A DNA stretch of 27,068 nt, taken from assembly GCA_003645495.1 (NCBI GenBank), contig QNFK01000001.1, positions 1 through 27,068 on the forward strand. Direction: 5' to 3'. Position 1 is the stretch's first letter; the number at the start of each line of letters is the position of its first letter. The translations under genes were made by a program, and so were the position numbers. This stretch comes from Gammaproteobacteria bacterium (lineage in GTDB: Bacteria > Pseudomonadota > Gammaproteobacteria > Steroidobacterales > Woeseiaceae). Of the stretch, positions 4,274 to 20,516 are shown one piece after another. The notes under the pieces are model-generated. The model saw only the letters and a program-made list of their open reading frames with translations. It was not told the DNA's origin and made no database searches.

Positions 4274-6529
<2,256 letters not shown>

Positions 6530-6678
6530 GACTTGGTATCTGATCTGACAGATAGTGTAACAGTTGATCAATTCCCAATTGCCGCTCCCATCGATAGCGG
6601 TGATCGTAACTCTGATGTTTTTTTGCTCTGACCCCATTTATTGTGCAATTTCTTGCGTCGATTGACCAGAATGGGTAA

Positions 6679-8028
6679 CTAAGAACACTCACCCATATCC
6701 CGTGGCAGGTAGCGAACGAGTAGTGCGAATTCATCAATCATACCGGGATCAGCCTTTTCCGGAACGGGGATTTTCACGACCCAACCTGAACCAGGGGCGG
6801 CATCGGTCTGTTTACCATCATGACTAGTCATGTCGTTAAGACGAAAAGACAGATTGCCTGACGGTGTAACCAGTTCCATCAGGTCACCGGTCTCGAAACG
6901 GTTTTTGACATCAATACTTAGCCAGTTGTCATTTATATCCAGGACTTCGCCGACAACCTGTTGCAGGTCAGATCGCGATGCACCTCGTTCATAATTCTGA
7001 TATTCGCCGGGCGGGTGACGGCGATAGAAGCCCTCGGTGTAACCGCGATTTGAAAGACCTTCCAGTTCGTCCAGCATGCCCATATCGAACAGCCGGCCTG
7101 CTGCAGCATCCTCGATCGCACGATGGTAAACCTGGGTCGTGCGCGCGGTGTAATAGGCCGATTTGGTACGGCCCTCGATCTTCAGTGAATCGATGCCCAT
7201 GGATGCCAGCGTATGCACGTGCTGAACTGCCCGCAGGTCCCTGGAATTCATGATGTAGGTTCCGTGTTCATCTTCAAAAGCCGGCATCAGTTCCCCTGGG
7301 CGGCCCTCTTCCTCCAACAAAGCAACAGGCGGTGTTTGAGATTGAATTGCAGGCGATGTCTCTTCAGGCACTTTGATCGGCGCGATATCACCGGTACTTG
7401 TCTCTCGGGCTTCATAGGCATTGTATTTCCAACGGCAGGTATTGGTGCATGCGCCCTGGTTGGAGTCACGGTGGGCAAGGTAGCCGGATAGCAGGCAGCG
7501 ACCAGAATACGCAATACACAGGGCGCCATGAACGAAGACTTCAAGTTCTATGTCCGGACATTGCTCGCGAATCTGTGCAACCTCCTTCAGCGACAGTTCA
7601 CGCGACAATATGATCCGGCTGAGCCCTGCATTTTGCCAGAATTTTACCGCAGCGTAGTTCACGACATTGGATTGCACAGACAGGTGTATTGGTAACTGCG
7701 GCCAGCGTTCGCGCACCATCATGATCAGCCCCGGATCTGACATGATCAGGGCATCGGGACCCATGTCCACAATCGGCTCCAGGTCCCTCAGGTAGTTCTT
7801 CAACTTGTTGTTATGCGGTGCGATATTACTGGCCAGGAAAAACAGTTTTCCCGCCGCATGGGTTTCCTCGATTCCCTGCCTCAGTATCGATTCCTTGCTG
7901 AACTCATTGTTACGCACTCGCAAGCTGTAACGTGGCTGGCCCGCATATACGGCGTCGGCACCATATGCGATGGCATAGCGCATATTTTTCAGGGTGCCGG
8001 CAGGTGACAGGAGTTCAGGTTTATTCAT
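6679..8028 (-). CDS. trhP: U32-family tRNA 5-hydroxyuridine synthase TrhP (YegQ), 449 aa
   Basis: KPELLSPAG…YGADAVYAGQPRYSLRVRNNEF, HGALCIAYSGRCLLSGY, NQGACTNTCRW (Fe-S cysteines), DSLKIEGRTKS. Start placed at MNKPELL. Confidence 0.92.
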   Translation of the reverse strand: MNKPELLSPAGTLKNMRYAIAYGADAVYAGQPRYSLRVRNNEFSKESILRQGIEETHAAGKLFFLASNIAPHNNKLKNYLRDLEPIVDMGPDALIMSDPGLIMMVRERWPQLPIHLSVQSNVVNYAAVKFWQNAGLSRIILSRELSLKEVAQIREQCPDIELEVFVHGALCIAYSGRCLLSGYLAHRDSNQGACTNTCRWKYNAYEARETSTGDIAPIKVPEETSPAIQSQTPPVALLEEEGRPGELMPAFEDEHGTYIMNSRDLRAVQHVHTLASMGIDSLKIEGRTKSAYYTARTTQVYHRAIEDAAAGRLFDMGMLDELEGLSNRGYTEGFYRRHPPGEYQNYERGASRSDLQQVVGEVLDINDNWLSIDVKNRFETGDLMELVTPSGNLSFRLNDMTSHDGKQTDAAPGSGWVVKIPVPEKADPGMIDEFALLVRYLPRDMGECS

Positions 8029-8136
8029 AATTACCAATTACGCATGCGAAATTACTGCAGGGTCGCTCCTGGACATGCATGTCTTACGCGACATGAGCCT
8101 GTCTGTACACAATACCGCCCCCGCCACGCAGCATGC

Positions 8137-9666
8137 CTATGCACCGCGCCGCCGCCTTCCTTTGCGACCACGGCGGCCGACTGGTGCGTTTTTCACCGCT
8201 GGAATGGGTGCTGGTGGAAGCTCAGGCAAATCCTGTTGCTCCAACAGGCCATCCTGTACCAATTTACGCATTGCGCTGTCAATCGCAGAATCTGTCTCGA
8301 TTGGTGTGTAACTGGCCAGTCGTTTTTCTACCTGGTCGCGAGCCCGGTCGTAAAGTTGCAGCGATCCGTTTTCCTCCCACGTTTCACGATTTGCGCGGTC
8401 AATTACAGGATCGGTCAGGTAGAGCTCCTGCTGCCAGTGCTCAAGCGTATGCGGTGAAGTTATCAGGTGCTCGTCTCGCAGAAGTTGCTCGACAAGGTCC
8501 GCGGTTGGCAGATCGTCAACCGGTTTCAGTTCTCGAACGAAATGCAACGCCTGGCCGCAGACTTCGTTATCGAAAATAAGTTTTGGCAGGCTGAAGGTAA
8601 GCACAAAGTCCAGCATGCCTGGACCAGAGACAGAATTTACACCAGCGATCGCAGCCAGCAACGCACTGCTGAACGTTTCTCCGCCGCCTTGCGCATCGAG
8701 AAATTTCCCATCACTTAATGCCATGTATGCCTGTGTCGGCAGATCGAGCGACTTCGCGACAGCGACATAGGCTACATTCAGGTGTTGTGCCTCTATCGCC
8801 GCCATCGGTGAGCTTGCTGCTTTCATGTGGAATGTGGCAGGCGCACCGCCAAACAATACCGGTGTGCCTGGATTTACGATTTGTGCCATCGTCAGCCCGG
8901 TCAGCACGTCAACACAGTGAAATACCAGCGCCCCGACCAGGGTTACCGGCGCGATCAACCCCATCAAAGTAACCGGAACAATCTCCACCGGGATGCCGGC
9001 CTCGACACAATCCAGCAGGTTCTGACAGGAGTCCTCACCATAGCGAAAATTGCCGGTAGCGGTGATAGTGAATATCGATTGTGGCTTCCGAATCAGTTCC
9101 GTACGGTCACTGCGGAATAACTGCAGCATCTCTACCATACGCGGTACGCCATGTTCACTGAATGCGCCGGTGACCACCGGTTTCTTTGATGTGATCAACG
9201 TCAGGTAAAGGCGCCACACATCGGAAACTTGCGACTCGATGTCAGCATTGGTCGAAAATGCTGTTGCAAGATAGGCAATGTGTTCCATGCCATCGCAAAG
9301 TCGCGCGTACTCGATGAAATCGGTCGAATCTGTCAGCCGGGTCTCACCAGTGCGGTGATCAAGAACCTTTAGTCCGCTGGATCCCGGCACATAATGCACG
9401 TTGTTACCACCGATCTCTGCATGTGGCTCACCGTCACGATTGTAGAGAGTGAATGATTTCGGTGCGCTCTCTATTGCGGCTTCGACCACGTCGGCAGAAA
9501 ACAGTACTCTCTTGCCAGTCTGATCAGTCTTGAGGCCGTGATCGAGCAGGCGCTGACGTAGTTTCTCGCCACGGATTTCCATCCCGGTTTCGGCCATGAT
9601 GCGCTTGGCCTCATCGAGAACCTTTTTGATGAGTTCATCTGACAGGACATTCAATGTTGGTCGCAT
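8137..9666 (-). CDS. Trimethylamine methyltransferase (MttB) superfamily protein, non-pyrrolysine, paralog 1 (509 aa)
   Basis: [63 protein letters not shown]. No in-frame TAG. Confidence 0.9.
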
Positions 9667-9684
9667 AATTCCGACTCCGGTTTC

Positions 9685-11211
9685 CTAGCTGCACCGCGCC
9701 ATAATGGCTTGCTTCCGCTTGCTTACGTACTCAACAAGCGCTTCGTCTATCGCAGGATCAAGGGGAGGCTGTTCATATTCGCGCAACAGCTGCTTCCAGA
9801 TTGTATTGGCACGCGCGCTGATATCGATGCTGCCGGATTCTTGCCATGATTCGAAGTTCTGCCGGTTAGATAGTATAGGCGTATAAAAAGCCGACTCGTA
9901 ACGCTCCAGCGTGTGGCTCGTACCGAAGTGGTGCCCACCCGGGCCGACTTCGGCAATCGCGTCCAGCGCCAGTTCGTCCTCGGACACTTCGATAGGGCGC
10001 AGATACTCAGCCATCATCTGCAACATTTCGGCATCAATAATAAGTTTCTCGAAAGAGGCTGTTAGCCCGCCCTCAAGCCAACCTGCTGCATGATTAACAA
10101 GATTGGCGTGACCCATGATCGATCCCCATAACGACATCTCGCTTTCAAATACGGCCTGTCCGTCGACACAGTTCGAGACCGTAGTATTGCTGGAGCGAAA
10201 AGGGAGTCCGAGGCGCCTTGCAATCTGGCCGCTTGCCTGGGCAGCTTTCGCATACTCGGGTGTGCCGAGTGCGGGAGCGCCGCTGCGCATGTCAACATTG
10301 GATGCAAAACTGCCGTACATAATCGGGGCGCCGGGCCTGACAACCTGGGCAAATGTTGCGACACCCAGCACCTCGGCAGTCTGCTGGACGAGCGTTCCCG
10401 CCAGTGTTGCGGGGCTCATCGAGCCTGCAAGCGTAAACGGCGTGATACAGCAAACCTGGCCGGCACCAGCGAGCTCCATGACCGCTTCGGTCATTGGAAT
10501 ATCGAGTTGCATCGGTGAATTCGTATTTATCACACCGAGCAGGGCGGGCACCTCAGCCAAGCCAGCACGGTCGGTGCCGAGGGCGATACAGGTCATCTCA
10601 ATGGAATCTGCTGTTCGCGCTCCTCCGAGCGCATAAGACTGAGCGTTCTTGTCCAGTAGTCGAATCTGCGCCAGGTACAGATCAAGATGCCGTGTTTCTG
10701 CCGGCAGATCCAGTGCTTCGAACGGGCCGCCACCTTCCTGGTGGACAATGTTGAGGCTCTGTATGAGGCGCAGGTAATCGCACATCTCGTCGTAGGTGCC
10801 GGGCCGGCGGCCGTTGTCCAGGTCACTGCAAAAGGCTGGCCCGCCGACCGATGAAAACAGTATGTTGTTGTCACCCACTTTGAGGTTGTGCGCCGGATTG
10901 CGTGCCCGCAAACCGAACCTGGGCGGTGCCAGCGCCAGTTTTTCTTCCACGAGCACATGATCGATGCGCACCATTTTTCCAGGCTCATCGACTTCGGCAC
11001 CGGCTCTTTGCATGATTTTTCGACTGCCCGGTTCAAGAAAACGCATGCCTTGCGTCTCCAGCACCTTGAGCGCTGCCTGGATGATAGTTTCAATCTGCGA
11101 CTCATCAAGAACTTCGACGGGTGCATACGGATTAATCACGTTGCGCCATGGCAATTGCACAATCTCATCCACGACTCGTCTTTTTCGCCGACTGCGTCTC
11201 GTCATTTGCAC
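9685..11211 (-). CDS. MttB superfamily methyltransferase (MtgB-like), non-pyrrolysine, paralog 2 (508 aa)
   Basis: INTNSPMQLD, TPFTLAGSMSPATLAGTLVQ, RPGAPIMYGSF, HAAGWLEGGLTASFEKLIIDAE, VGPGGHHFG. Confidence 0.93.
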   Translation of the reverse strand: MQMTRRSRRKRRVVDEIVQLPWRNVINPYAPVEVLDESQIETIIQAALKVLETQGMRFLEPGSRKIMQRAGAEVDEPGKMVRIDHVLVEEKLALAPPRFGLRARNPAHNLKVGDNNILFSSVGGPAFCSDLDNGRRPGTYDEMCDYLRLIQSLNIVHQEGGGPFEALDLPAETRHLDLYLAQIRLLDKNAQSYALGGARTADSIEMTCIALGTDRAGLAEVPALLGVINTNSPMQLDIPMTEAVMELAGAGQVCCITPFTLAGSMSPATLAGTLVQQTAEVLGVATFAQVVRPGAPIMYGSFASNVDMRSGAPALGTPEYAKAAQASGQIARRLGLPFRSSNTTVSNCVDGQAVFESEMSLWGSIMGHANLVNHAAGWLEGGLTASFEKLIIDAEMLQMMAEYLRPIEVSEDELALDAIAEVGPGGHHFGTSHTLERYESAFYTPILSNRQNFESWQESGSIDISARANTIWKQLLREYEQPPLDPAIDEALVEYVSKRKQAIMARCS

Positions 11212-11223
11212 ATGCCTTGGGTG

Positions 11224-12093
11224 TCAATCCTGGGATTGCAGCGCATCCAGGAACTCGTGCCGCCATTGTTCAGCACTTTCGACCTGGTTGAAACAATAAA
11301 TGTGATGCCCGGCAATGTTATAGCTCGGGTCTGCTATGTAGGGCGCCAAATCTGCCAACAACTCATCGGGGCGGTAGGATTTTGACTTAAGCAAATTGGC
11401 CGCGATCTTGCCGCGGTTCTTCAGGTAACGCAGCGAATCACCAACACCAATACGCAAAGACGTCTTTACCAGTGTACTGCGATCGGCGACACCCGGTAGT
11501 CCAATCCAGGCGGGCAGCGTAACGCCGAGATCACGAATTTCGCGCAACCAGCCACCGAGGACTCTTGCATCGAAACACATTTGCGTTACCAGGTAGTTCG
11601 AGAACTCCTGTTTCTTGAGAAGATCTTTCATCAGCACATCCCGACTGATGCTCGGATGGCCTTCCGGATGCGACGCAACACCTATTTCCGACAATTTGTG
11701 ATCGAATTCGGAAATCGCACGTAGCAAGTCAAGTGCGCAGGAAAACTTGCCGATCGGTTTCGCTGCATCCCCACCAGGCACGAAGAGACTGATAATCGGC
11801 AGATCATCCAGGCGCTGCAAAATTTCCCGCAGGTGAGCATCGTCCCTGACCATTCTCGCGGCAACATGTGGCACAACCTTGAAGCCTCTTTGTGCAAGTC
11901 GCTCAACCATATCGAGGGTCACTTCGACACCTTTCGAGGGCGAACAGGTCACCGCGACGTATGACCCTGGCTCCAGCACGTCAAGCCTTGACTCAATGGA
12001 CGATGTTGGGAACACCTCCATATAAGCCTCTCGCACCGTATGCAGGAGCGTATTGTGTTCGGCTTTCGAAAGCGTTTTTTTCGTCGACAACAT
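11224..12093 (-). CDS. metF: Methylenetetrahydrofolate reductase family protein (289 aa)
   Basis: VPHVAAR, GVASHPEGHP, YLVTQMCFD, WIGLPG and HIYCFNQ match the MTHFR FAD barrel; the gene sits in a C1 cluster. Confidence 0.8.
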   Translation of the reverse strand: MLSTKKTLSKAEHNTLLHTVREAYMEVFPTSSIESRLDVLEPGSYVAVTCSPSKGVEVTLDMVERLAQRGFKVVPHVAARMVRDDAHLREILQRLDDLPIISLFVPGGDAAKPIGKFSCALDLLRAISEFDHKLSEIGVASHPEGHPSISRDVLMKDLLKKQEFSNYLVTQMCFDARVLGGWLREIRDLGVTLPAWIGLPGVADRSTLVKTSLRIGVGDSLRYLKNRGKIAANLLKSKSYRPDELLADLAPYIADPSYNIAGHHIYCFNQVESAEQWRHEFLDALQSQD

Positions 12094-12097
12094 ACCT

Positions 12098-14104
12098 TTA
12101 GCGTGCCCGTCTTTTTCTACCGCCGGTCGGCCTCACTTCTTTGTTGGCCGGAAGCTCGACAGTTCTGCTGAGCTCACCAAATTCGTCTGTCTGGTGTGGA
12201 ATGGTCATCGCGGCCACGAAGTGATCCTGGAACCCCTCGGCCACAGCGGTTTCGACTTTTTCAATTTGCCGAACCTGAGCTTCGATATGTGAGCGCGCAT
12301 TCCTGTCGAGAAGCGCAATTCGCGCGCCCGTGCCCGCTGCATTGCCTGCCGAGGAGACCTGTTCGATATCGCAATCCGGAATCAGGCCGAGCACCATTGC
12401 ATACTTGCCATCGATGTGTGCGCCGAATGCGCCAGCCAATCGAATTCGATCGACTTTGTCGACGCCGAACTGCTCCATCAACAACCGGGCACCAGCATAA
12501 AGCGCAGCTTTCGCAAGCTGAATGGCGCGCACATCATTTTGCGAAATATGGATTGTCGGTTGTCCATCGTGAAGTACATACGCAAAGGTTCGACCGTCTT
12601 CGATTATGCGTGCCGACCGCGAGCCAGCGTCGCCCAGTATTTTTCCGTTCTGATCGATGACGCCAGCCAGGTACATCTCGGCAACGACCTCTATAATGCC
12701 GGAACCACAAATGCCCGTGATCCCGGACGAGGAAACGTGTTCCGCGAAGAGCGGATCATCGGACCACAGATCACAGCCGATCACCTTGAATTTTGGCTCG
12801 AGCGTCTGACGATCGATGCGCACGCGTTCAATAGCGCCGGGCGCGGCACGCTGGCCTGCGCTGATCTGAGCGCCCTCGAATGCCGGACCGGTCGGGCTGG
12901 ATGCAGCGAGCAAGCGATCCCGGTTGCCGACAATTATTTCCGCGTTAGTGCCAATGTCGACAATGAGAGATACCTCATCACGATCGTAGGGCGATTCCGC
13001 GAGCAGCACACCGGCGCAATCAGCGCCAACGTGACCAGCGATGCAGGGCAGAGCGTAAACATGTCCACCCGGATTAATAGTGATACCGATATCTGTTGCA
13101 AGGACATCTACAGCTGCGTCGTTGGCTAACGCGAACGGTGCCGTGCCGAGCTCGACCGGATTAATACCCAGAACGAGGTGTTGCATGATCGGGTTGCCGA
13201 CCACGGTCATCTCCACCACATCGGTGGACTCGATTTGCGCCTGTGCAGACACGTCCGCCGCCAACTCACTGATCGCTTCGCGCACAGTTCGGATCAGATC
13301 GGCTTCTCCGCCAGGATTCATCATGATGTAAGACACACGGCTCATCAGATCTTCGCCAAATCGAATCTGCGGATTCATTTTGCCCGCACTCGCGAGAACA
13401 TCTCCGCTGGTCAGGTCGCAAAGATGCGCAGCGATTGTCGTCGAACCGACATCCACCGCTATTCCGTACAGTCGTTCCCTGAATCCCGGCCAAACCGCTA
13501 TGATCTGCTCACCATTTCTTATCGCGACCGTGACCTGCCAGGCTCCCGCACGCAAACAGGTCTGCAGAGTCTGGATGACATTGATTTCGCAGCGAAGGTT
13601 ATCGAGCTGCCATTCAGTTCTAAGTGCTGCCAGCAGACGTTGTAAATCGCCACTGGGGACATGCATATCCGGTTGCGCGACTTCCACGAAATAGGCGTGC
13701 ACGACCGGGTTGATGTCTATATCGTGAGCTTCGTGGTTTTTGCGAACAACCTGGTGGTGAACCTGCGAGCTGGCGGGAACATCGATAACCACATCTGCGC
13801 GAAGTGTTGCCTGGCAACTCAATCGACGGTTGTCTGCGAGGCCACGCCTCGACGCGAAACGTTGTTCGGCTTCGCCACGAGATGACAGGCTTTCAGCTTT
13901 GGAAACAATCTTGTGTTTGGCGAATTCCCCTTCGGACACTTCGACCTGGCACCTGCCGCAAATAGCCCGTCCTCCGCAGACCGAGTCCACGTCAACACCC
14001 AGTTTTTGTGCGGCATTGAGTACCGGGGTAGACAATGGAAATCGACCACGCTTCCCTGACGGCGAAAAGACCACCATTGCGTCATTTTTTGGCGGGTTAC
14101 TCAT
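12098..14104 (-). CDS. ASKHA-domain/[2Fe-2S] reductive activator of corrinoid enzymes (RACE/DUF4445 family, 668 aa)
   Basis: N-terminal ferredoxin CGGRAICGRC…RLSC, ASKHA motifs VDVGSTT and DIGTNAEI, TGPAFEGAQI, GICGSG, LAGAFG, GNAAGTGA. Confidence 0.93.
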   Translation of the reverse strand: MSNPPKNDAMVVFSPSGKRGRFPLSTPVLNAAQKLGVDVDSVCGGRAICGRCQVEVSEGEFAKHKIVSKAESLSSRGEAEQRFASRRGLADNRRLSCQATLRADVVIDVPASSQVHHQVVRKNHEAHDIDINPVVHAYFVEVAQPDMHVPSGDLQRLLAALRTEWQLDNLRCEINVIQTLQTCLRAGAWQVTVAIRNGEQIIAVWPGFRERLYGIAVDVGSTTIAAHLCDLTSGDVLASAGKMNPQIRFGEDLMSRVSYIMMNPGGEADLIRTVREAISELAADVSAQAQIESTDVVEMTVVGNPIMQHLVLGINPVELGTAPFALANDAAVDVLATDIGITINPGGHVYALPCIAGHVGADCAGVLLAESPYDRDEVSLIVDIGTNAEIIVGNRDRLLAASSPTGPAFEGAQISAGQRAAPGAIERVRIDRQTLEPKFKVIGCDLWSDDPLFAEHVSSSGITGICGSGIIEVVAEMYLAGVIDQNGKILGDAGSRSARIIEDGRTFAYVLHDGQPTIHISQNDVRAIQLAKAALYAGARLLMEQFGVDKVDRIRLAGAFGAHIDGKYAMVLGLIPDCDIEQVSSAGNAAGTGARIALLDRNARSHIEAQVRQIEKVETAVAEGFQDHFVAAMTIPHQTDEFGELSRTVELPANKEVRPTGGRKRRAR

Positions 14105-14115
14105 AGGAGAATCAG

Positions 14116-15024
14116 TTATCCACGAGTTGCTCGTCGACGGCGACCGCCCCTTCTGCCGCGGCGCACACTGCCTTCTGCGTCCGGGTCACGGTAAGCGGCG
14201 ATCCAATTCGCGCATTCAGCATCGTTGCCCATAACGACATTTGCTCCACGCACAGACTGCATAAGGTCACTGTGCAGCGGATTCGTAATTGCGGACGTCA
14301 GGCCACTCGCGATTGCCATACTAATGAACGCCGAATTCAACCCGTTACGATTAGGCAAACCGAAACTCAGGTTAGATGCGCCACAGGTTGTGTTGACCTT
14401 AAGTTCGGCACGTAACCGGCGAACGAGCTCCATGACCTGTTGTCCTGCACTGTTTATTGCTCCGATCGGCATTACCAGGGGATCGACGACAACGTCCTCA
14501 GCAGGAATGCCGTAATCAAGTGCGCGTTCCACTATTTTTTTGGCTACCGCAAATCGCACATTGATATCTTCGGATATGCCGGTGTCGTCATTTGATATTG
14601 CGATTACGGCGCAGCCGTGTTTCTTGACCAGGGGTAATACCTGCTCAAGTCTCTCTTCTTCACCGGTAACGGAATTCAACAGTGCTTTACCCTCATACGC
14701 GTCCAGTCCCGCCTCCAGCGCCGCGACAATGGATGAGTCAATGCACAAGGGAACATCGGTTATTGATTGTAATAGCTTGATGGACTTCGCCAGGATCGCC
14801 GGCTCGTCAGCCAGCGGTATACCCGCGTTAACGTCAAGAATCGTTGCCCCTGCGGCTACCTGTGCCAATGCATCTGCCTCCACGCGACTGTAGTCGCCGG
14901 CCTTCATTTCCTCAGCGAGTAATTTGCGCCCCGTCGGATTGATGCGCTCACCGATGACAGCAAACGGTTGCTCAAAACCGATGACCACTTCTCTACTTCG
15001 TGAGCTGATAACTGTTCTAGTCAT
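14116..15024 (-). CDS. Methyl-THF:corrinoid methyltransferase (pterin-binding, DHPS/MetH-like; MT2), 302 aa
   Basis: VIGERINPTGRK, ILDVNAG, PLCIDSS, LLNSVTGE, VVVDPLVMPIGA, CGASNLSFGLP. Confidence 0.92.
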   Translation of the reverse strand: MTRTVISSRSREVVIGFEQPFAVIGERINPTGRKLLAEEMKAGDYSRVEADALAQVAAGATILDVNAGIPLADEPAILAKSIKLLQSITDVPLCIDSSIVAALEAGLDAYEGKALLNSVTGEEERLEQVLPLVKKHGCAVIAISNDDTGISEDINVRFAVAKKIVERALDYGIPAEDVVVDPLVMPIGAINSAGQQVMELVRRLRAELKVNTTCGASNLSFGLPNRNGLNSAFISMAIASGLTSAITNPLHSDLMQSVRGANVVMGNDAECANWIAAYRDPDAEGSVRRGRRGGRRRRATRG

Positions 15025-15038
15025 TCTTTACTCCGTTT

Positions 15039-15356
15039 TCATTCTGCACGTTTTTGCGCTTCTTCAACCAGGCCGTCCGCTTTTACTACTGACTCCAGAA
15101 ATTCATCATCAAAAACACTCTCAAGCAAGGCAACTTTGCGTTCTACGAACTCCTCCAGGTTGCCGCTGACTTCCTCGGGCTCCCTGCGCCAGTCCGCAAG
15201 ATAGGCATCGCTGGAACCACGTCCGGCACGCATTGCCGCACGGTCAATCGCTTTCGCAAAACGCGGCGCCAACTCCTTTTTGGCCTTTTTTCGCCCTTCG
15301 CGACCGATAACCTGGGCCGGGATATCCCGCCAGTAGATGCAGATCAGTTTTGCCAT
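15039..15356 (-). CDS. Small conserved 'virulence factor' family protein (PF13769-like), usually found in corrinoid clusters (105 aa)
   Basis: IYWRDIPAQV…RFAKAIDRAAMRAG…DAYLADWRR signature. Confidence 0.8.
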   Translation of the reverse strand: MAKLICIYWRDIPAQVIGREGRKKAKKELAPRFAKAIDRAAMRAGRGSSDAYLADWRREPEEVSGNLEEFVERKVALLESVFDDEFLESVVKADGLVEEAQKRAE

Positions 15357-15973
15357 TGAATAACCTTTTCCAGTATTTCGCTCCCCACAGGTTCCAGGCC
15401 GGTGTGCACTCGCTCGTACTCGAGACCGAGGTAGTTGGCGTGCTGCTCTGCCAGCGCCGCCAGTTCCGGTGCGTCTGATTGCGACAAGTAGACCAGCCGC
15501 TTGTAATTGCCAAAATACATCGGCAGCAATTGCGGATGTTCGTCGATGCCAAGACCTGACTTGATCAGCCGGTCAAAGTGGCGCGTCAGGAAATCTGTCA
15601 GGTAGAAAGTGCCCATCTCTGCCTCAACCAGGTCGTGAAACACGGCTGCGCCGGAAAAAAACTCGTAACAGTGCGCTCCGGACAAACGTTCAATACCGTA
15701 CTCGGCCAGGACTTCGTCGAGCAAACCACCGGTTCCGCAATCAGCATAAGCAACAAATATCTGCTCGTACTGCCCGCGCTTGTCTTCAATTTCGGCGCGT
15801 ACCGCCGCCGGTATTTTCTCCGGCCTGTTGTGCAGATCCGCAGGCAGACATTGTATTTTCAGGTGCGACCAGTTATTGAGCCGCTTCAGTTCCACAATCT
15901 CCCGGGCCAGCGCACCACAGGCTATGACCAGTACTTGTGCTTTCACCGCTTGATTCCAATCTTTAGCCCGCAT
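15344..15973 (-). CDS. DUF1638 family protein (209 aa)
   Basis: VIACGALAREI, LHNRPEKI, VAYADCGTGG, GAHCYEF, GTFYLTDFL. Start placed at ATG 15973; GTG 15946 is also possible. The longer ORF extension overlaps the corrinoid gene. Confidence 0.85.
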   Translation of the reverse strand: MRAKDWNQAVKAQVLVIACGALAREIVELKRLNNWSHLKIQCLPADLHNRPEKIPAAVRAEIEDKRGQYEQIFVAYADCGTGGLLDEVLAEYGIERLSGAHCYEFFSGAAVFHDLVEAEMGTFYLTDFLTRHFDRLIKSGLGIDEHPQLLPMYFGNYKRLVYLSQSDAPELAALAEQHANYLGLEYERVHTGLEPVGSEILEKVIQWQN

Positions 15974-16679
15974 TTGCCGAGGCGGCTCTCTGCTCACCCA
16001 CCAGTTTCTTGGCAACCTCCACTGCCGTCGCTGCGTCCCGGCAATAGGCATCAGCACCGACCGCTTTGCCGAATTCATCATTTAACGGTGCCCCGCCGAC
16101 CATAACAATGTAGTCATCGCGCAGTCCTTGCTCTTTAAGAGTATCGATGACGACTTTCATGTAGGGCATCGTCGTTGTCAGCAGTGCTGACATGCCGAGA
16201 ATATTCGGTTTATGCGTTTTTAGCGCCTCGATGTAAGTATCGGCATCCGTATTAATTCCGAGATCGATAACTTCAAATCCTGCTCCCTCCATCATCATGC
16301 CAACAAGATTCTTGCCAATGTCGTGAATATCACCCTTGACGGTACCTATCACCATCTTGCCGACTGGCTCCACGCCGGATTCGGCCAGGATCGGCTGCAG
16401 TATCGCCATACCTGCTTTCATGCTGTTGGCGGCAAGCAGAACCTCCGGGACGAAAAGTATGCCATCACGAAAATCTTTTCCTACGATGTTCATGCCGCCA
16501 ACGAGCGCCTCATCCAGCACCTTTTTCGCATCCCAGCCACGGTCAAGCAGAATTTGCGTGCCCTCCGCAATCTCGTCGGCGAGGCCGTCGTAAAGATCGT
16601 CGTGTATTTGCTCGGTGAGCTCGCTATCGGAAAGCTCCGCCAGAACAATATCTTCGTTTTCCTCAATTTCCTGCGACAT
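15963..16679 (-). CDS. Corrinoid (B12-binding) methyl-carrier protein, MtbC/MttC/MetH cap plus B12 domain (238 aa)
   Basis: FVPEVLLAANSMKAG cap region, GTVKGDIHDIGKNLV (DxHxxG), GMSALLTTTM, MVGGAP. Start placed at the second Met. Confidence 0.95.
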   Translation of the reverse strand: MSQEIEENEDIVLAELSDSELTEQIHDDLYDGLADEIAEGTQILLDRGWDAKKVLDEALVGGMNIVGKDFRDGILFVPEVLLAANSMKAGMAILQPILAESGVEPVGKMVIGTVKGDIHDIGKNLVGMMMEGAGFEVIDLGINTDADTYIEALKTHKPNILGMSALLTTTMPYMKVVIDTLKEQGLRDDYIVMVGGAPLNDEFGKAVGADAYCRDAATAVEVAKKLVGEQRAASANAG

Positions 16680-16753
16680 ATGCAATTTCCACTATGATTA
16701 AGAAATTCGGAAAATATGCTTAACGGCTGCAAGCCGAAGCACATTTCCTGTGT

Positions 16754-18346
16754 TTACCATCGTCCGTTACCGGGCCTCATATCTTCAGCTTTAAGCTGTA
16801 TTGGAAAGCGATCGCGGATTCTCTTGTCAGCCGCCGGGTCAATATAAGTCGGGTAATGGCTCGCCAACATTTCCCCGACTTGCTCATGAGCCTGTTCGTA
16901 GAGCGTCTTGCAGCCCATCTCTTCCCAGGCGCCCGGTGTGAGCCGGTCTGCAACTTCCGGATAGAGGTATTCGCTCTGCATCAGCTCAAGCGTCTGCTGA
17001 CTTCCGAGGTAATGGCCTGCGCCAAATACCGTTTCGTTAATAATGTCATACGATAAGGTCTCATCCGTTACCTCGATGCCGCGCAGCACCCGCTGAATGT
17101 TCCCGATCATGTCATTGTCGATAATCATACCTTCGAATGACTGGCCGATGAGGCTACCGACGACTCCCGGATACGCAGCGAGCAAATTCGCGCCAGCGAG
17201 GGCAGCGGTCATAACTGTAATCGCCTTTTCATAGCCTGCCTGCACATCCATCGTTTTCGCATCTGTCATGCCGGCGCCGACACTGGTCGTAAACCCGTAG
17301 TGATTACACAGTTGTACTGTCGCGGCGGTAATCAGTGCTTCCTCGCCACTACCTCCCGAGAATGCACCAGTTCGCAAATCCGAGATAAAGGGCCACATGC
17401 CAAAGTTAATCGCCGCACCTGGCCGGATGAGGTTTACGATCGCGAGGCAGGCCAGGGTCTCTGCAAAGCACTGCACCAGGGTGCCCGCAAGCGCTGCGGG
17501 TGACGTCGCACCCGCTTGTGGCGCGACTGCAATATCCGCCACAAGCCCGAGTTCTGCAATCTTGACGAGAACCTCGGCGTTATCTTTGCCAAAGCGCAGC
17601 GGCGACACAATTGGACAACCGCCAAACGTGCAAAACGGCCGTTTCAGGAAGCCACCATCCTCACCGAGGTACGCGTCGAAGAGGGAGATTATGGGCTCGA
17701 TGTGATCGACCTCGGCAATGCCCAGCGCAAACGACTTGCTGGTACCCGCGAGTTCCGCGTACGCGATGTTTATATCGTGAACAAAAACATTTTCACTGTA
17801 TTCCGCCGCGATAAACGGCTGGCCAAAACTGTGAATGTGCTCGAGCTGATCGGCCAGCCGCGCCGCATCATACAGGTCGGTGAGCCTGGTCGGTCGAAAT
17901 TTCTGTGTTTCGAAATCGAGAATCGTGACCGCTTCACCCGATGTGCAAAAAAGAACGTCTTGTCCCCGGACCGTAAGATCGTGTTTTGGATCCGGCGCAA
18001 AAAGCGGGTACTCGTTGGCTGATTGGGCGATGAGGTCTTCAACCAGCGCACGCGGAAAACGCAGGCGATTGTCGTCGCCAAGAACGCATCCTTTAGGCAG
18101 CACATGATGCAGAATCTCCGCTATTGGGTCGCCGATTCCGATGTTTTCGAGAATATCGAGCGCGGTCGCGTGAATCCGCTGTATATCGGCGTCGCTCAAA
18201 GGCCGATAGTTGCCCCCGGGCAGACCTGGATGTACAGCGCTAGACGCCGGACCGTTGGTCCTGGCAGCACGGCGCGTAGCGCTACCGCCCCCGCGCCTGG
18301 TACGACCTGATTTCTGCCGTTGTCGAGAGATTCTCGCCTCCTGCAA
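16754..18346 (-). CDS. MttB superfamily methyltransferase, non-pyrrolysine, paralog 3 (~525-530 aa; start uncertain)
   Basis: PTRLTDLYDAARLAD, CPIVSPLRFG, PQAGATSPAALAGTLVQ, WPFISDLRTGAFSGGSGE, DVQAGYEK. Start is TTG 18346 or ATC 18331; the ORF-track ATG at 18457 looks too far upstream. Confidence 0.9.
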   Translation of the reverse strand: MQEARISRQRQKSGRTRRGGGSATRRAARTNGPASSAVHPGLPGGNYRPLSDADIQRIHATALDILENIGIGDPIAEILHHVLPKGCVLGDDNRLRFPRALVEDLIAQSANEYPLFAPDPKHDLTVRGQDVLFCTSGEAVTILDFETQKFRPTRLTDLYDAARLADQLEHIHSFGQPFIAAEYSENVFVHDINIAYAELAGTSKSFALGIAEVDHIEPIISLFDAYLGEDGGFLKRPFCTFGGCPIVSPLRFGKDNAEVLVKIAELGLVADIAVAPQAGATSPAALAGTLVQCFAETLACLAIVNLIRPGAAINFGMWPFISDLRTGAFSGGSGEEALITAATVQLCNHYGFTTSVGAGMTDAKTMDVQAGYEKAITVMTAALAGANLLAAYPGVVGSLIGQSFEGMIIDNDMIGNIQRVLRGIEVTDETLSYDIINETVFGAGHYLGSQQTLELMQSEYLYPEVADRLTPGAWEEMGCKTLYEQAHEQVGEMLASHYPTYIDPAADKRIRDRFPIQLKAEDMRPGNGRW

Positions 18347-18453
18347 TGTCTTCTGACTGGTTAGTTCGGAGATGTGTCGGACAGATGACGCATGAATCTT
18401 TGAATTAATTAGGAATTTTAACGGATCCGCTGCTTCAGGAACCAGAGGAAAAT

Positions 18454-18483
18454 CCATAATATGAAATAGATTTCATTATATGG
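18454..18483. promoter_or_regulatory. AT-rich imperfect palindrome (CCATAATATGAAAT-ag-ATTTCATTATATGG), candidate transcription-factor operator
   Basis: 14-bp arms with 2 mismatches, in the low-GC gap between MttB paralogs 4 and 3. Confidence 0.5.
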
Positions 18484-18512
18484 AACGAGCTTGTGCGGGC
18501 ATAGCCAACTGC

Positions 18513-20060
18513 TTACCAGCGACCATTGTCCTTTTGCATGTCAGCCTGCCTGATCTCAATGGGAAATCGATCGCGTATCTTCCGGTCGATCGCCGCATCA
18601 ATGTACTCCGGGTAATGCGAAGACATAATTTCCCTGACCCGGGCAGCGGCCTGCTCACGAATGTCCAGTGACCCGCCCTCCTGCCACTGGTTCGGTGGCA
18701 GGCGGTCCGCAAGATCGGGATACTCGTACTCGGATCGCATAAGTTCGAGGGTCTGGGCCTGCCGCAGGAAATGCCCTTCTCCCCGAACGGCACTCTCGAT
18801 GACTTCCACTGAAAGCGTTTGCTCGTTGACTTCAATGCCGCGCACGGTGCGTAACACCGTCCCCAGCATGTCGTTATCAATCACGAGCGACTCCATCGAC
18901 AGGCCCATCAGACTGCCCATCATGCCAGCCGATTCCGAGACATTATTGCAGCCGCTTAGCGCCGCCAGAGTGACCGCGATTGCCTTTTCGTAGCCAGCCT
19001 GATTGTCGGGTAACTTGGCGTCGCTCATGCCGGCGCCAACTGAGCTCACCAGCCCGTAGAAATTGGTGACCTGTGCTGCTGCGGCACTGACCAGTGCCTC
19101 TTCGCCGCCACCGCCGGTGAAACTGCCGCTGCGCAGGTCGGAGACGAATGGCCACGGCCCCACAATAACCGGATATTTCGGCACCACCAGGTTGATCATC
19201 AGCAGGCTTGCCAGTGCCTCGGCCATCACCTGGACTACAGTGCCGGCCAGTGCTGCGGGTGCCGTCGCGCCCGCCTGGGGCGCAACTACAATCCAGACCG
19301 GGGCGCCGAATTTGGTTGATTCGATGCAAACTTCGGCGTTATCCGCGCCATAGCGAAGCGGCGATATGACCGGGCAGCCCCCGCCATGGCAAAAAGGTCG
19401 CTCGTGAAAGTTTTTCTTACCACCAGCGATCATGTAGAGCATCTCGAGCGTCGGTTCTACATTCTTCGCATCACCGAAAGTCAGGGCCGTGTGCTTTGCG
19501 GTGCCAGCGACACTCGCATAAGCGGTATTGATATCGCATTCGAGCCGGTTGTTCATGTCGGTAGCGACGATCAGGCGAGAGAATGCGTGGATATTGTCGA
19601 GCCTGTCCACCAGTCGGGCGACATCATAGACATCCAGCAATGTCGAGGGCCGATAAGTCGATGCACCAACGTCCAGCATTGTTACGGCCTCACCACCACC
19701 GTAAGTATGCACACGTTGATCGCCGAGATGCAGATCAAAGCGCGGCTCGCGTCCACAGAACCGCAGCTCGTGAGCGGTTTCGGCGATGATGTCTTCCACG
19801 AGTGCCCGGGGGAAACAGAGCCGGCCGTGCTTATCAATCTTGCAGCCTTTCTTGAGTGCGTGTTCCTTTAATACCGGAATCGGATCGGCCATACCGATGT
19901 TTTCCAGTACATCGAGTACAGCATGATGAATACTTTGAATCTCGGCATCAGTCAGTGGCTTGTAAGTACCGCCCGACAGCCCGGGCGCAACCGCCGACTG
20001 TTGCGGTGGACTTTCTCTGCGCGCCTGCCTTCCCCGCCGCATGCTGCCTCTCCTGTTCAT
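18513..20060 (-). CDS. MttB superfamily methyltransferase, non-pyrrolysine, paralog 4 (515 aa)
   Basis: PSTLLDVYDVARLVD, CPVISPLRYG, PQAGATAPAALAGTVVQ, WPFVSDLRSGSFTGGGGE, DNQAGYEK. Close tandem paralog of the previous gene; both end in NGRW. Confidence 0.93.
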   Translation of the reverse strand: MNRRGSMRRGRQARRESPPQQSAVAPGLSGGTYKPLTDAEIQSIHHAVLDVLENIGMADPIPVLKEHALKKGCKIDKHGRLCFPRALVEDIIAETAHELRFCGREPRFDLHLGDQRVHTYGGGEAVTMLDVGASTYRPSTLLDVYDVARLVDRLDNIHAFSRLIVATDMNNRLECDINTAYASVAGTAKHTALTFGDAKNVEPTLEMLYMIAGGKKNFHERPFCHGGGCPVISPLRYGADNAEVCIESTKFGAPVWIVVAPQAGATAPAALAGTVVQVMAEALASLLMINLVVPKYPVIVGPWPFVSDLRSGSFTGGGGEEALVSAAAAQVTNFYGLVSSVGAGMSDAKLPDNQAGYEKAIAVTLAALSGCNNVSESAGMMGSLMGLSMESLVIDNDMLGTVLRTVRGIEVNEQTLSVEVIESAVRGEGHFLRQAQTLELMRSEYEYPDLADRLPPNQWQEGGSLDIREQAAARVREIMSSHYPEYIDAAIDRKIRDRFPIEIRQADMQKDNGRW

Positions 20061-20063
20061 CGT
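20050..20063. repeat. 14-bp direct repeat, copy 1 (CTCCTGTTCATCGT), spanning the start codon of MttB paralog 4
   Basis: Identical to 20528-20541. Confidence 0.7.
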
Positions 20064-20111
20064 TTATTCCCTGCAACGTAATGATTGGCCTGATGACCCA
20101 ACTGTAGCGAG

Positions 20112-20516
20112 TTACTCCGTATAGGACCACGTTTCATGTTGCGGCAGATCATCCGTGATTTCGTACCAGGGTGCCTTCGATCCAACGAAAATGTGAAAAG
20201 AGGGCCGACACTTTGGGTCACCGTTTATGGTACCCAACGCCAGGTAAAGCACGTCGGGCTCTGTATTGAGAATCGCCTGCAACGTTGAACCGCAGACACT
20301 GCAAAACGTTCTGTCCATCGAGGCCGACGATTGATAAACCTGAACGAGGTCGGACCCGGACAGCCAACGAAAATTTTCTCGTGGGACAGCACCATAGGTG
20401 CCGAATGCTGCGCCGTGTATTCGCTGGCACATAGAACAATGACAGTGGCTTACCTCGCCAATATCGCCTTCAACCGCATATTGAATCCTGCCGCAGAGAC
20501 ATTTTCCCTCGATCAT
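20112..20516 (-). CDS. GFA/CENP-V family Zn-binding protein (glutathione-dependent formaldehyde-activating enzyme family), 134 aa
   Basis: GKCLCG, HCHCSMCQR, RTFCSVCGS, HIFVGSKAPW, with an AGGAGG RBS. Confidence 0.9.
   Translation of the reverse strand: MIEGKCLCGRIQYAVEGDIGEVSHCHCSMCQRIHGAAFGTYGAVPRENFRWLSGSDLVQVYQSSASMDRTFCSVCGSTLQAILNTEPDVLYLALGTINGDPKCRPSFHIFVGSKAPWYEITDDLPQHETWSYTE

Follow-up and report, generated by a model that had tools for sequence, protein, structure and literature searches.

A conserved arginine-rich tail on the corrinoid-carrier clients of a Woeseiaceae methyl-transfer cluster, matched by an acidic carrier head: a putative docking tag

The corrinoid cluster and its arginine-rich termini

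The window analyzed here is a stretch of 27,068 nucleotides (positions 1 to 27,068 of contig QNFK01000001.1, GenBank assembly GCA_003645495.1) from a gammaproteobacterial metagenome-assembled genome (MAG) of the family Woeseiaceae, which is 2.56 Mb in size and 72% complete. At positions 8137 to 20516 the window holds an operon-like cluster on the minus strand, composed of four MtgB genes together with MtgC, DUF1638, PF13769, MtgD, a RamA-like activase, and MetF2, plus a GFA-family gene. Six proteins of this cluster, all of them enzymes that dock on the B12-binding carrier MtgC (referred to below as its clients), have an arginine-rich peptide at one end, and the carrier itself begins with an acidic segment. 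We argue that the peptide probably acts as a shared electrostatic docking tag. The genes of the cluster, all on the minus strand, are as follows:

8137..9666, minus strand: MttB1, MtgB-like member of the MttB family, non-pyrrolysine (Pfam PF06253, E value 4e-76)
9685..11211, minus strand: MttB2, MttB family (Pfam PF06253, E value 7e-182, match from residue 4)
11224..12093, minus strand: MTHFR-like gene, MetF2 of the Mtg system (Pfam PF02219); non-client, tail-less
12098..14104, minus strand: RACo/RamA-like reductive activase (Pfam Fer2, RACo_linker, Raco_middle, and RACo_C_ter; 2Fe-2S and ASKHA domains)
14116..15024, minus strand: MT2/MtgD, pterin-binding methyl-corrinoid:tetrahydrofolate methyltransferase (Pfam PF00809)
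15039..15356, minus strand: small PF13769 ("Virulence_fact") protein (Pfam E value 1e-19), without a low-complexity tail
15344..16081, minus strand: DUF1638 gene, longest open reading frame (ORF) (Pfam PF07796 match at residues 78-230); tail-less
15963..16679 (from ATG), minus strand: corrinoid carrier of the MtgC type (Pfam B12-binding_2 and B12-binding)
16754..18457, minus strand: MttB3 (Pfam PF06253 match from residue 55), start codon uncertain
18513..20060, minus strand: MttB4, MttB family (Pfam PF06253)
20112..20516, minus strand: GFA-family gene at the head of the cluster, tail-less (from its ORF translation; family name taken from the initial annotation and not rechecked)

Apart from the GFA name, the protein families proposed in the initial annotation, which was made from the letters of the sequence, were confirmed by Pfam. 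The four PF06253 genes contain neither internal stops nor an in-frame pyrrolysine TAG and are thus non-pyrrolysine members of the MttB family. The domains by which the aerobic Mtg system is recognized (PF00809, the RACo domains, PF07796, and PF02219) occur in one operon, and the MtgC-type carrier is a stand-alone protein distinct from MetH and from the anaerobic MtgC. This gene and domain content places the cluster in the aerobic MtgBCD(E)/RamA/DUF1638 corrinoid methyl-transfer system.

The six basic low-complexity termini are all present as first quoted. MttB1 has a C-terminal tail of 13 residues (encoded at approximately 8140-8178) and no N-terminal arginine motif, the activase ends in RPTGGRKRRAR (approximately 12101-12133), and MtgD ends in RRGRRGGRRRRATRG (approximately 14119-14163). 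The other MttB proteins bear their motif at the N terminus, namely, MTRRSRRKRR in MttB2 (approximately 11176-11205), SRQRQKSGRTRRGGGSATRRAAR in MttB3 (residues 44-66 of the longest ORF, approximately 18260-18328), and MNRRGSMRRGRQARRE in MttB4 (approximately 20013-20060). The MttB2 ORF begins (V)QMTRRSRRKRR, in which translation likely starts at the third codon, an ATG, and its orthologs start M[ST]RRxHRxRR. Termini and charge counts bear out that MTHFR, DUF1638, and GFA lack such tails, and the PF13769 protein lacks one as well.

The tails are real and exceed what chance would produce. Approximately 2,450 ORFs were called genome-wide with a crude codon-usage caller, and when the 2,132 complete C termini among them were ranked by arginine density, MtgD came first and MttB1 second, with the activase among the 28 ORFs (1.3%) that reach at least 5 arginines per 12-residue window. 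In the corresponding ranking of N termini, MttB4 tied for the most arginine rich and MttB2 and MttB3 were near the top of a list that is polluted by over-extended ORFs. Elsewhere in the genome, arginine-rich termini were identified on two DEAD-box helicases, Rho, RlmN, a kinase, and membrane proteins; among soluble metabolic enzymes, they were found on the corrinoid enzymes alone.

The arginines are encoded by a mixture of CGC, CGT, CGA, CGG, AGA, and AGG codons, indicating that the tails are not DNA repeats. Their net charge is +5 to +8, and the client bodies to which they are attached are acidic (net -10 to -24). In an AlphaFold2 model of MtgD the last helix spans residues 269-279, the block means of the predicted local distance difference test (pLDDT) are at most 51 from residue 281 onward, and residues 285-299 are below 50, so that this tail is predicted to be disordered. 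A twin-arginine translocation (Tat) signal peptide was considered and rejected, given that the N-terminal motifs enter the cytosolic MttB domain directly with no hydrophobic h-region and that three of the tails are C-terminal.

Two starts in the cluster deserve comment. In MttB3 (18260-18457, minus strand) there is no convincing canonical start, and the longest ORF adds 43 poorly conserved residues before the arginine motif; shortly before the motif there is an in-frame ATC with an AGGAGG 5 nt upstream of it, and the ortholog at locus L003 is also without an upstream in-frame ATG, GTG, or TTG. A non-canonical start is possible for this gene. The longest ORF for DUF1638 and the 3' end of the corrinoid gene share about 120 nt (15963-16081). 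Orthologs are 200 amino acids long and start about 40 residues further in, which puts the true start of this gene probably some 40 codons downstream, near 15970. The arginine-rich beginning of this longest ORF falls within the overlap and is probably upstream of the true start.

Conservation of the tails across loci and client families

We compared approximately 110 related loci (one contig counted twice) from Proteobacteria, Actinomycetota, and Chloroflexota, comprising 15 from the same genus or order, 20 from other families of the phylum, and 80 anchored on the activase (through an activase alignment, and in-group only); the groups sampled include Gamma-, Alpha-, and Betaproteobacteria, Thermoleophilia, Actinomycetes, Chloroflexia, and Ca. 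Poriferihabitans. From the 50%-cluster representatives, which included many fragments and chimeras, only full-length stand-alone matches were kept, and a protein was scored as tailed if it had at least 5 R/K per 12-residue window near a terminus. The 15 loci of the same genus or order carry tails on the same proteins and at the same ends, and tails likewise fall on the same proteins in the 20 loci from other families and the 80 activase-anchored loci. Overall, a C-terminal tail was present in 97 of 98 MtgD proteins (median of 7 R/K) and in 92 of 94 activases (median of 6 R/K). The non-client neighbors MTHFR, DUF1638, PF13769, and GFA (n = 196) have a median of 2 R/K, and 4 of them reach 5. A tail of the form RRGRRGGRRRR is retained in all 120 close homologs of MtgD (best database matches, 84 to 100% identity).

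The tails contain 1,237 arginines to 96 lysines, compared to 1.7:1 in the proteome, and the bias persists in loci of 44 to 51% guanine-plus-cytosine (GC) content. Because arginine is favored over lysine even there, and because the codons are mixed, these sequence patterns point to selection on the tail residues and not on the DNA. The view that the termini have no function and arise only from composition, gene overlap, or mis-called starts has some basis in the uncertain starts of MttB3 and DUF1638 and in the frequent arginine richness of high-GC frames, but we regard it as highly improbable and close to refuted: a start-codon artifact is impossible for C-terminal tails and was rejected for them, the codons are mixed, and conservation is 97 to 100% over three phyla. 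A DNA-repeat or GC artifact was rejected on similar grounds, since tails occur throughout the range from 44 to 73% GC, with density rising toward low GC, and an outgroup cluster of 64.5% GC has none.

The MttB family shows that the position of the tail is flexible. The N-terminal motif of the paralogs aligns as RRxGGRxxRRAxR, and the MttB3 motif aligns with those of the others. Both ends could be read in 61 MttB proteins, of which 51 are tailed at the N terminus only, 9 at the C terminus only, and 1 weakly at both; none is tail-less. MttB1 orthologs in 8 loci keep the C-terminal tail and lack the N-terminal motif, and an unrelated MttB at locus L112 likewise has a C-terminal tail in place of the motif, such that the nine C-tailed cases correspond to about two independent events. 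The suggestion in the initial annotation that the tag works from either terminus is therefore matched by the pattern in this family, in which 61 of 61 proteins are tailed at one end.

If the tails mark clients of the carrier, then the homocysteine methyltransferase MtgE should also carry one, and this prediction held. PF02574 genes adjacent to MtgC at loci L117, L118, and L120 (probably from alphaproteobacteria) end in KRDRRSRRRRS, RARRGRRRARA, and KRERRGRRRAS, and that of the gammaproteobacterium G231 (L119) ends in RSRGRSRRRQA. Four carrier-independent PF02574 paralogs from the same genomes (L122-L125) end at GGCCxxGP with no tail, and the MmuM-like PF02574 gene of the genome studied here (L121) also ends at the GGCCxxGP region and is tail-less. 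An unbiased scan of the related loci for tailed proteins recovered the MtgE family nine times (in alphaproteobacterial loci) and no other recurrent tailed family, the remaining hits resembling spurious high-GC ORFs. The tailed folds are thus MttB (PF06253), MtgD (PF00809), the RACo activase, and MtgE (PF02574), which are unrelated and share no known property other than docking on the carrier. The proposed tag is on all carrier clients and off non-clients and carrier-independent paralogs, with a partial exception in the homocysteine methyltransferase of locus L126, discussed below.

The acidic head of the carrier and its co-occurrence with the tails

With translation taken from the ATG, the first 40 residues of the carrier include 15 D/E and no K/R, as originally reported, and the protein has a net charge of -23 and an isoelectric point of 4.3. 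The acidic head comprises residues 1-33, encoded at approximately 16581-16679. Across 78 carriers, the stretch that precedes the conserved DDLYDG motif shows medians of 24 residues, 9 D/E, and 0 K/R, and an alignment of in-group carriers to those of outgroups reveals a 17-residue extension (mean net charge of -5.1) together with a first cap helix that is very acidic (mean of -6.1, standard deviation of 0.6). The excess carrier charge (approximately -11) is confined to residues 1-33, and the remainder of the protein is no more acidic than outgroup carriers. An AlphaFold2 model of the carrier (mean pLDDT of 89) has residues 1-9 disordered, 10-17 ordered, and 18-30 in a helix, from which the target of the tails looks like a largely structured acidic patch of the cap domain with a short floppy tip, not a long acidic tail. 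The window carrier shares 67 to 75% identity with carriers from elsewhere in the phylum, including three that adjoin MtgE, and these relatives (probably alphaproteobacteria) carry the same tails; its identity to outgroup carriers is 37 to 50%. The solved corrinoid proteins 1Y80, MttC 7XCN, 4JGI, and MtmC 3EZX begin approximately 18 to 22 residues later than the carrier.

Acidic head and arginine tails occur together. Both are present in in-group clusters and both are absent from four outgroup clusters (L129, L130, L143, and L029), in keeping with the co-occurrence anticipated in the initial annotation. The outcome named there as refuting the idea, tails that are unconserved or uncorrelated with the acidic extension, was thus not observed. 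The two traits also vary together within the in-group, where the acidity of the carrier head is correlated with the tail density of its partners (Spearman 0.49); with a tree inferred from the part of the carrier that follows the DDLYDG motif, independent contrasts gave r = 0.39 (p = 0.001; 31 same-sign vs 16 opposite), and the partial correlation controlling for GC is 0.34. Tail density and head acidity are both stronger at low GC, indicating that GC does not create the tails. Corrinoid genes were not found near P0239 on its 10.7-kb contig, and the contigs of P0133, P0136, and P0169 were too short to show carrier or partner genes.

Outgroup L129 (MttB, carrier, MT2, activase, DUF1638, and MttB) is closely similar to the window cluster in gene set and order, with an MT2 identity of 54%, and its GC content is 64.5%. 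The MttB, MT2, and RACo bodies of L129 are as acidic as those of the clients (net -10 to -26), yet they are tail-less. This comparison bears on the alternative that the tails serve each enzyme separately, by offsetting acidic bodies, aiding solubility or folding, or assembling homo-oligomers, and that their likeness is convergent. Such roles would suit the strongly acidic client bodies, and N-terminal residues of the Methanosarcina barkeri MttB do stabilize its hexamer (PMC9842639), but equally acidic non-clients and PF02574 paralogs are tail-less, as are the L129 proteins, and the tolerance of MttB for a tail at either end argues against a fixed structural role. We consider this alternative rather improbable.

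The tail segments are absent from the solved structures of MtgA (4O0Q), MeTr (1F6Y), RACo (3ZYY), MtgB (2QNE/9YCE), and MttB (7XCL), and they fall outside the matches to NCBIfam family models. The anaerobic MtgABC system of Desulfitobacterium hafniense and MttBC of M. barkeri share with the window the same folds and three-component chemistry, but their solved proteins lack both the arginine tails and the acidic carrier head of about 20 residues. Nothing in these results spoke for condensation into a metabolon or for the shielding of O2-sensitive Co(I), both raised as possibilities in the initial annotation.

Docking on a shared carrier and comparison with known systems

From the distribution, conservation, and complementary charge of the tails and head, together with the disorder predicted for the MtgD tail, we infer that the tails steer their proteins to the carrier. 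In this system the four MttB-family methyltransferases load methyl groups onto the shared small B12 carrier MtgC, MtgD hands the methyl on to tetrahydrofolate, and the RACo-type activase re-reduces oxidized cobalt. In this clade each carrier-docking protein has acquired a probably disordered Arg/Gly-rich peptide of approximately 10 to 20 residues and net +5 to +8 at either terminus, and the carrier a matching acidic N-terminal element of approximately -11 over 33 residues, made up of a floppy tip, an ordered segment, and the very acidic first cap helix. In the mechanism we envision, the tail would steer or tether the acidic, mutually repelling clients to the acidic head of the carrier cap domain, raising encounter rates and allowing clients to time-share one carrier by competition for the same site. 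That the arginine tail is a shared, portable electrostatic docking tag matched by the acidic carrier head is the interpretation we favor, with some reservation. A stronger version, in which tail and head form an addressing code such that the tail is necessary and sufficient to enroll a client and permits rapid hand-over of the carrier among up to six clients, is put forward only tentatively and seems to us the less probable of the two.

Docking as originally proposed is partly supported: conservation, co-occurrence, the MtgE tail, and the tailing of MttB at either end agree with it, while the long acidic tail gave way to a mostly structured patch and L126 is a partial exception. Several observations weigh against a docking tag or limit its reading. 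The floppy part of the carrier head is predicted to be confined to residues 1-9. Locus L126 (272-5506), a compact metagenomic operon of activase, carrier, homocysteine methyltransferase, DUF1638, and MT2 (50% MT2 identity), has an acidic head and an arginine run on its activase but a weak MtgD tail and a homocysteine methyltransferase ending in QEGEEQE; it looks like a split methionine synthase without MttB and, being intermediate in both traits, may mark the origin of the tag. Contacts that are purely electrostatic would be weaker at the ionic strength of marine cells, and the co-occurrence of tails and acidic head could be traceable to one ancestral event. DUF1638 is genetically required for the system in Phaeobacter (PMC5764234), yet it is tail-less. 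The tail-less L129 cluster (6103-14795) adjoins a Rieske ring-hydroxylating oxygenase gene and an AsnC-type regulator, which suggests an aerobic host in which the system is untagged. Tail-less systems therefore probably extend beyond anaerobes, and a simple aerobe/anaerobe split is weakened.

A final difficulty is that the other arginine-rich termini in this genome are on RNA-binding proteins (DEAD-box helicases, Rho, and RlmN) or membrane proteins, making RNA or lipid the default ligand for such peptides. The main rival to docking is the usual role of such tails, general polyanion binding, by which RNA or ribosomes, the nucleoid, polyphosphate, or anionic lipid would co-localize or condense the pathway enzymes and the carrier would be recruited secondarily or never. 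The Arg/Gly-rich ends of the helicases, Rho, and RlmN and the cytoplasmic ends of membrane proteins fit this reading, as do the preference for arginine over lysine, which suits phosphate binding, and the disorder predicted for the MtgD tail. It leaves unexplained, however, why the carrier alone gained a localized patch of -11 in the same clade, why carrier acidity covaries with tail density, and why operon neighbors that belong to the pathway but have no contact with the carrier (MetF2, DUF1638, PF13769, and GFA) are without tails. We therefore judge polyanion binding unlikely as the primary role of the tails, though it is the most credible of the alternatives to the docking tag.

A docking element at the N terminus of a corrinoid protein has precedent. 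Docking in the M. barkeri MttB-MttC complex relies mainly on the cap domain, together with a dimerization loop, and involves few direct contacts; the N-terminal domain of MtaC docks into MtaB (2I2X) and stabilizes that complex (PMC9842639). The MtaC add-on is a folded domain that fits the groove of one partner, whereas the window carrier has an acidic patch that is apparently matched by the tails of four to six partners. One short motif that addresses many clients to one hub is known from the Rubisco-binding motifs of pyrenoid proteins, and the oppositely charged disordered segments of histone H1 and prothymosin-alpha form tight yet rapidly exchanging complexes; the likeness of the Mtg tails to either is by analogy alone, with no homology. 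RACo of Carboxydothermus hydrogenoformans (3ZYY/4C1N) is homologous to the window activase over residues 10-638 of 668, but the solved RACo ends about 9 residues past the homologous region, whereas the window activase adds 30 and ends in GGRKRRAR. The window proteins score far below the NCBIfam equivalog cutoffs (TIGR02369, NF047995/6, and NF040756): 289-363 vs 525, 213 vs 370, and 397 vs 800.

The Mtg system itself is known, having been described genetically in Phaeobacter inhibens (PMC5764234) and Ruegeria pomeroyi (PMC12478193) as a glycine-betaine/quaternary-amine demethylase and split methionine synthase composed of MtgBCDE, RamA, and DUF1638, and MtgBCD is reported to be a major, highly expressed oceanic route for glycine-betaine demethylation and methionine synthesis (PMC12478193). 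A shared docking tag looks undescribed: arginine, tail, acidic, or electrostatic features go unmentioned in both of these papers, and literature searches pairing MttB or corrinoid protein with arginine-rich or basic-tail terms returned nothing relevant. PMC12478193 does not explain how several separate enzymes share one small carrier, and a clade-specific tag on all clients would offer a concrete mechanism for the assembly of split B12 enzymes, based on a feature that the structurally studied systems, all of them anaerobic, do not have. It would also supply a sequence rule for recognizing carrier clients, one that picked out MtgE without prior knowledge. If the docking tag is real, tails could predict unknown clients of the carrier in genomes and could be used to graft new methyl donors or acceptors onto it, a possible handle for engineering corrinoid methyl-transfer pathways.

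The window shares MtgB, MtgC, MtgD, the RamA-like activase, DUF1638, and MetF2 with the described aerobic system but differs in having four MtgB paralogs in one operon, a full-length MetH elsewhere in the genome (G000:C104:784-4704, L116), and no MtgE found in this 72% complete assembly. The lone stand-alone PF02574 gene found in the genome is the tail-less MmuM-like gene (G000:C183, L121). With MetH and this gene present and no MtgE found, the Mtg cluster here may serve catabolism only.

Two further observations concern MttB2 and the PF13769 protein. The closest structure to MttB2 is PDB 4YYC, a "putative trimethylamine methyltransferase" for which a literature search gave no match; 49 residues precede its conserved domain, and this segment may contain an arginine motif. 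The PF13769 protein lies between DUF1638 and MtgD in most related clusters and combines a basic N-terminal domain (11 K/R in 40 residues) with an acidic C-terminal end, and it could be a further, previously unrecognized component of the corrinoid system.

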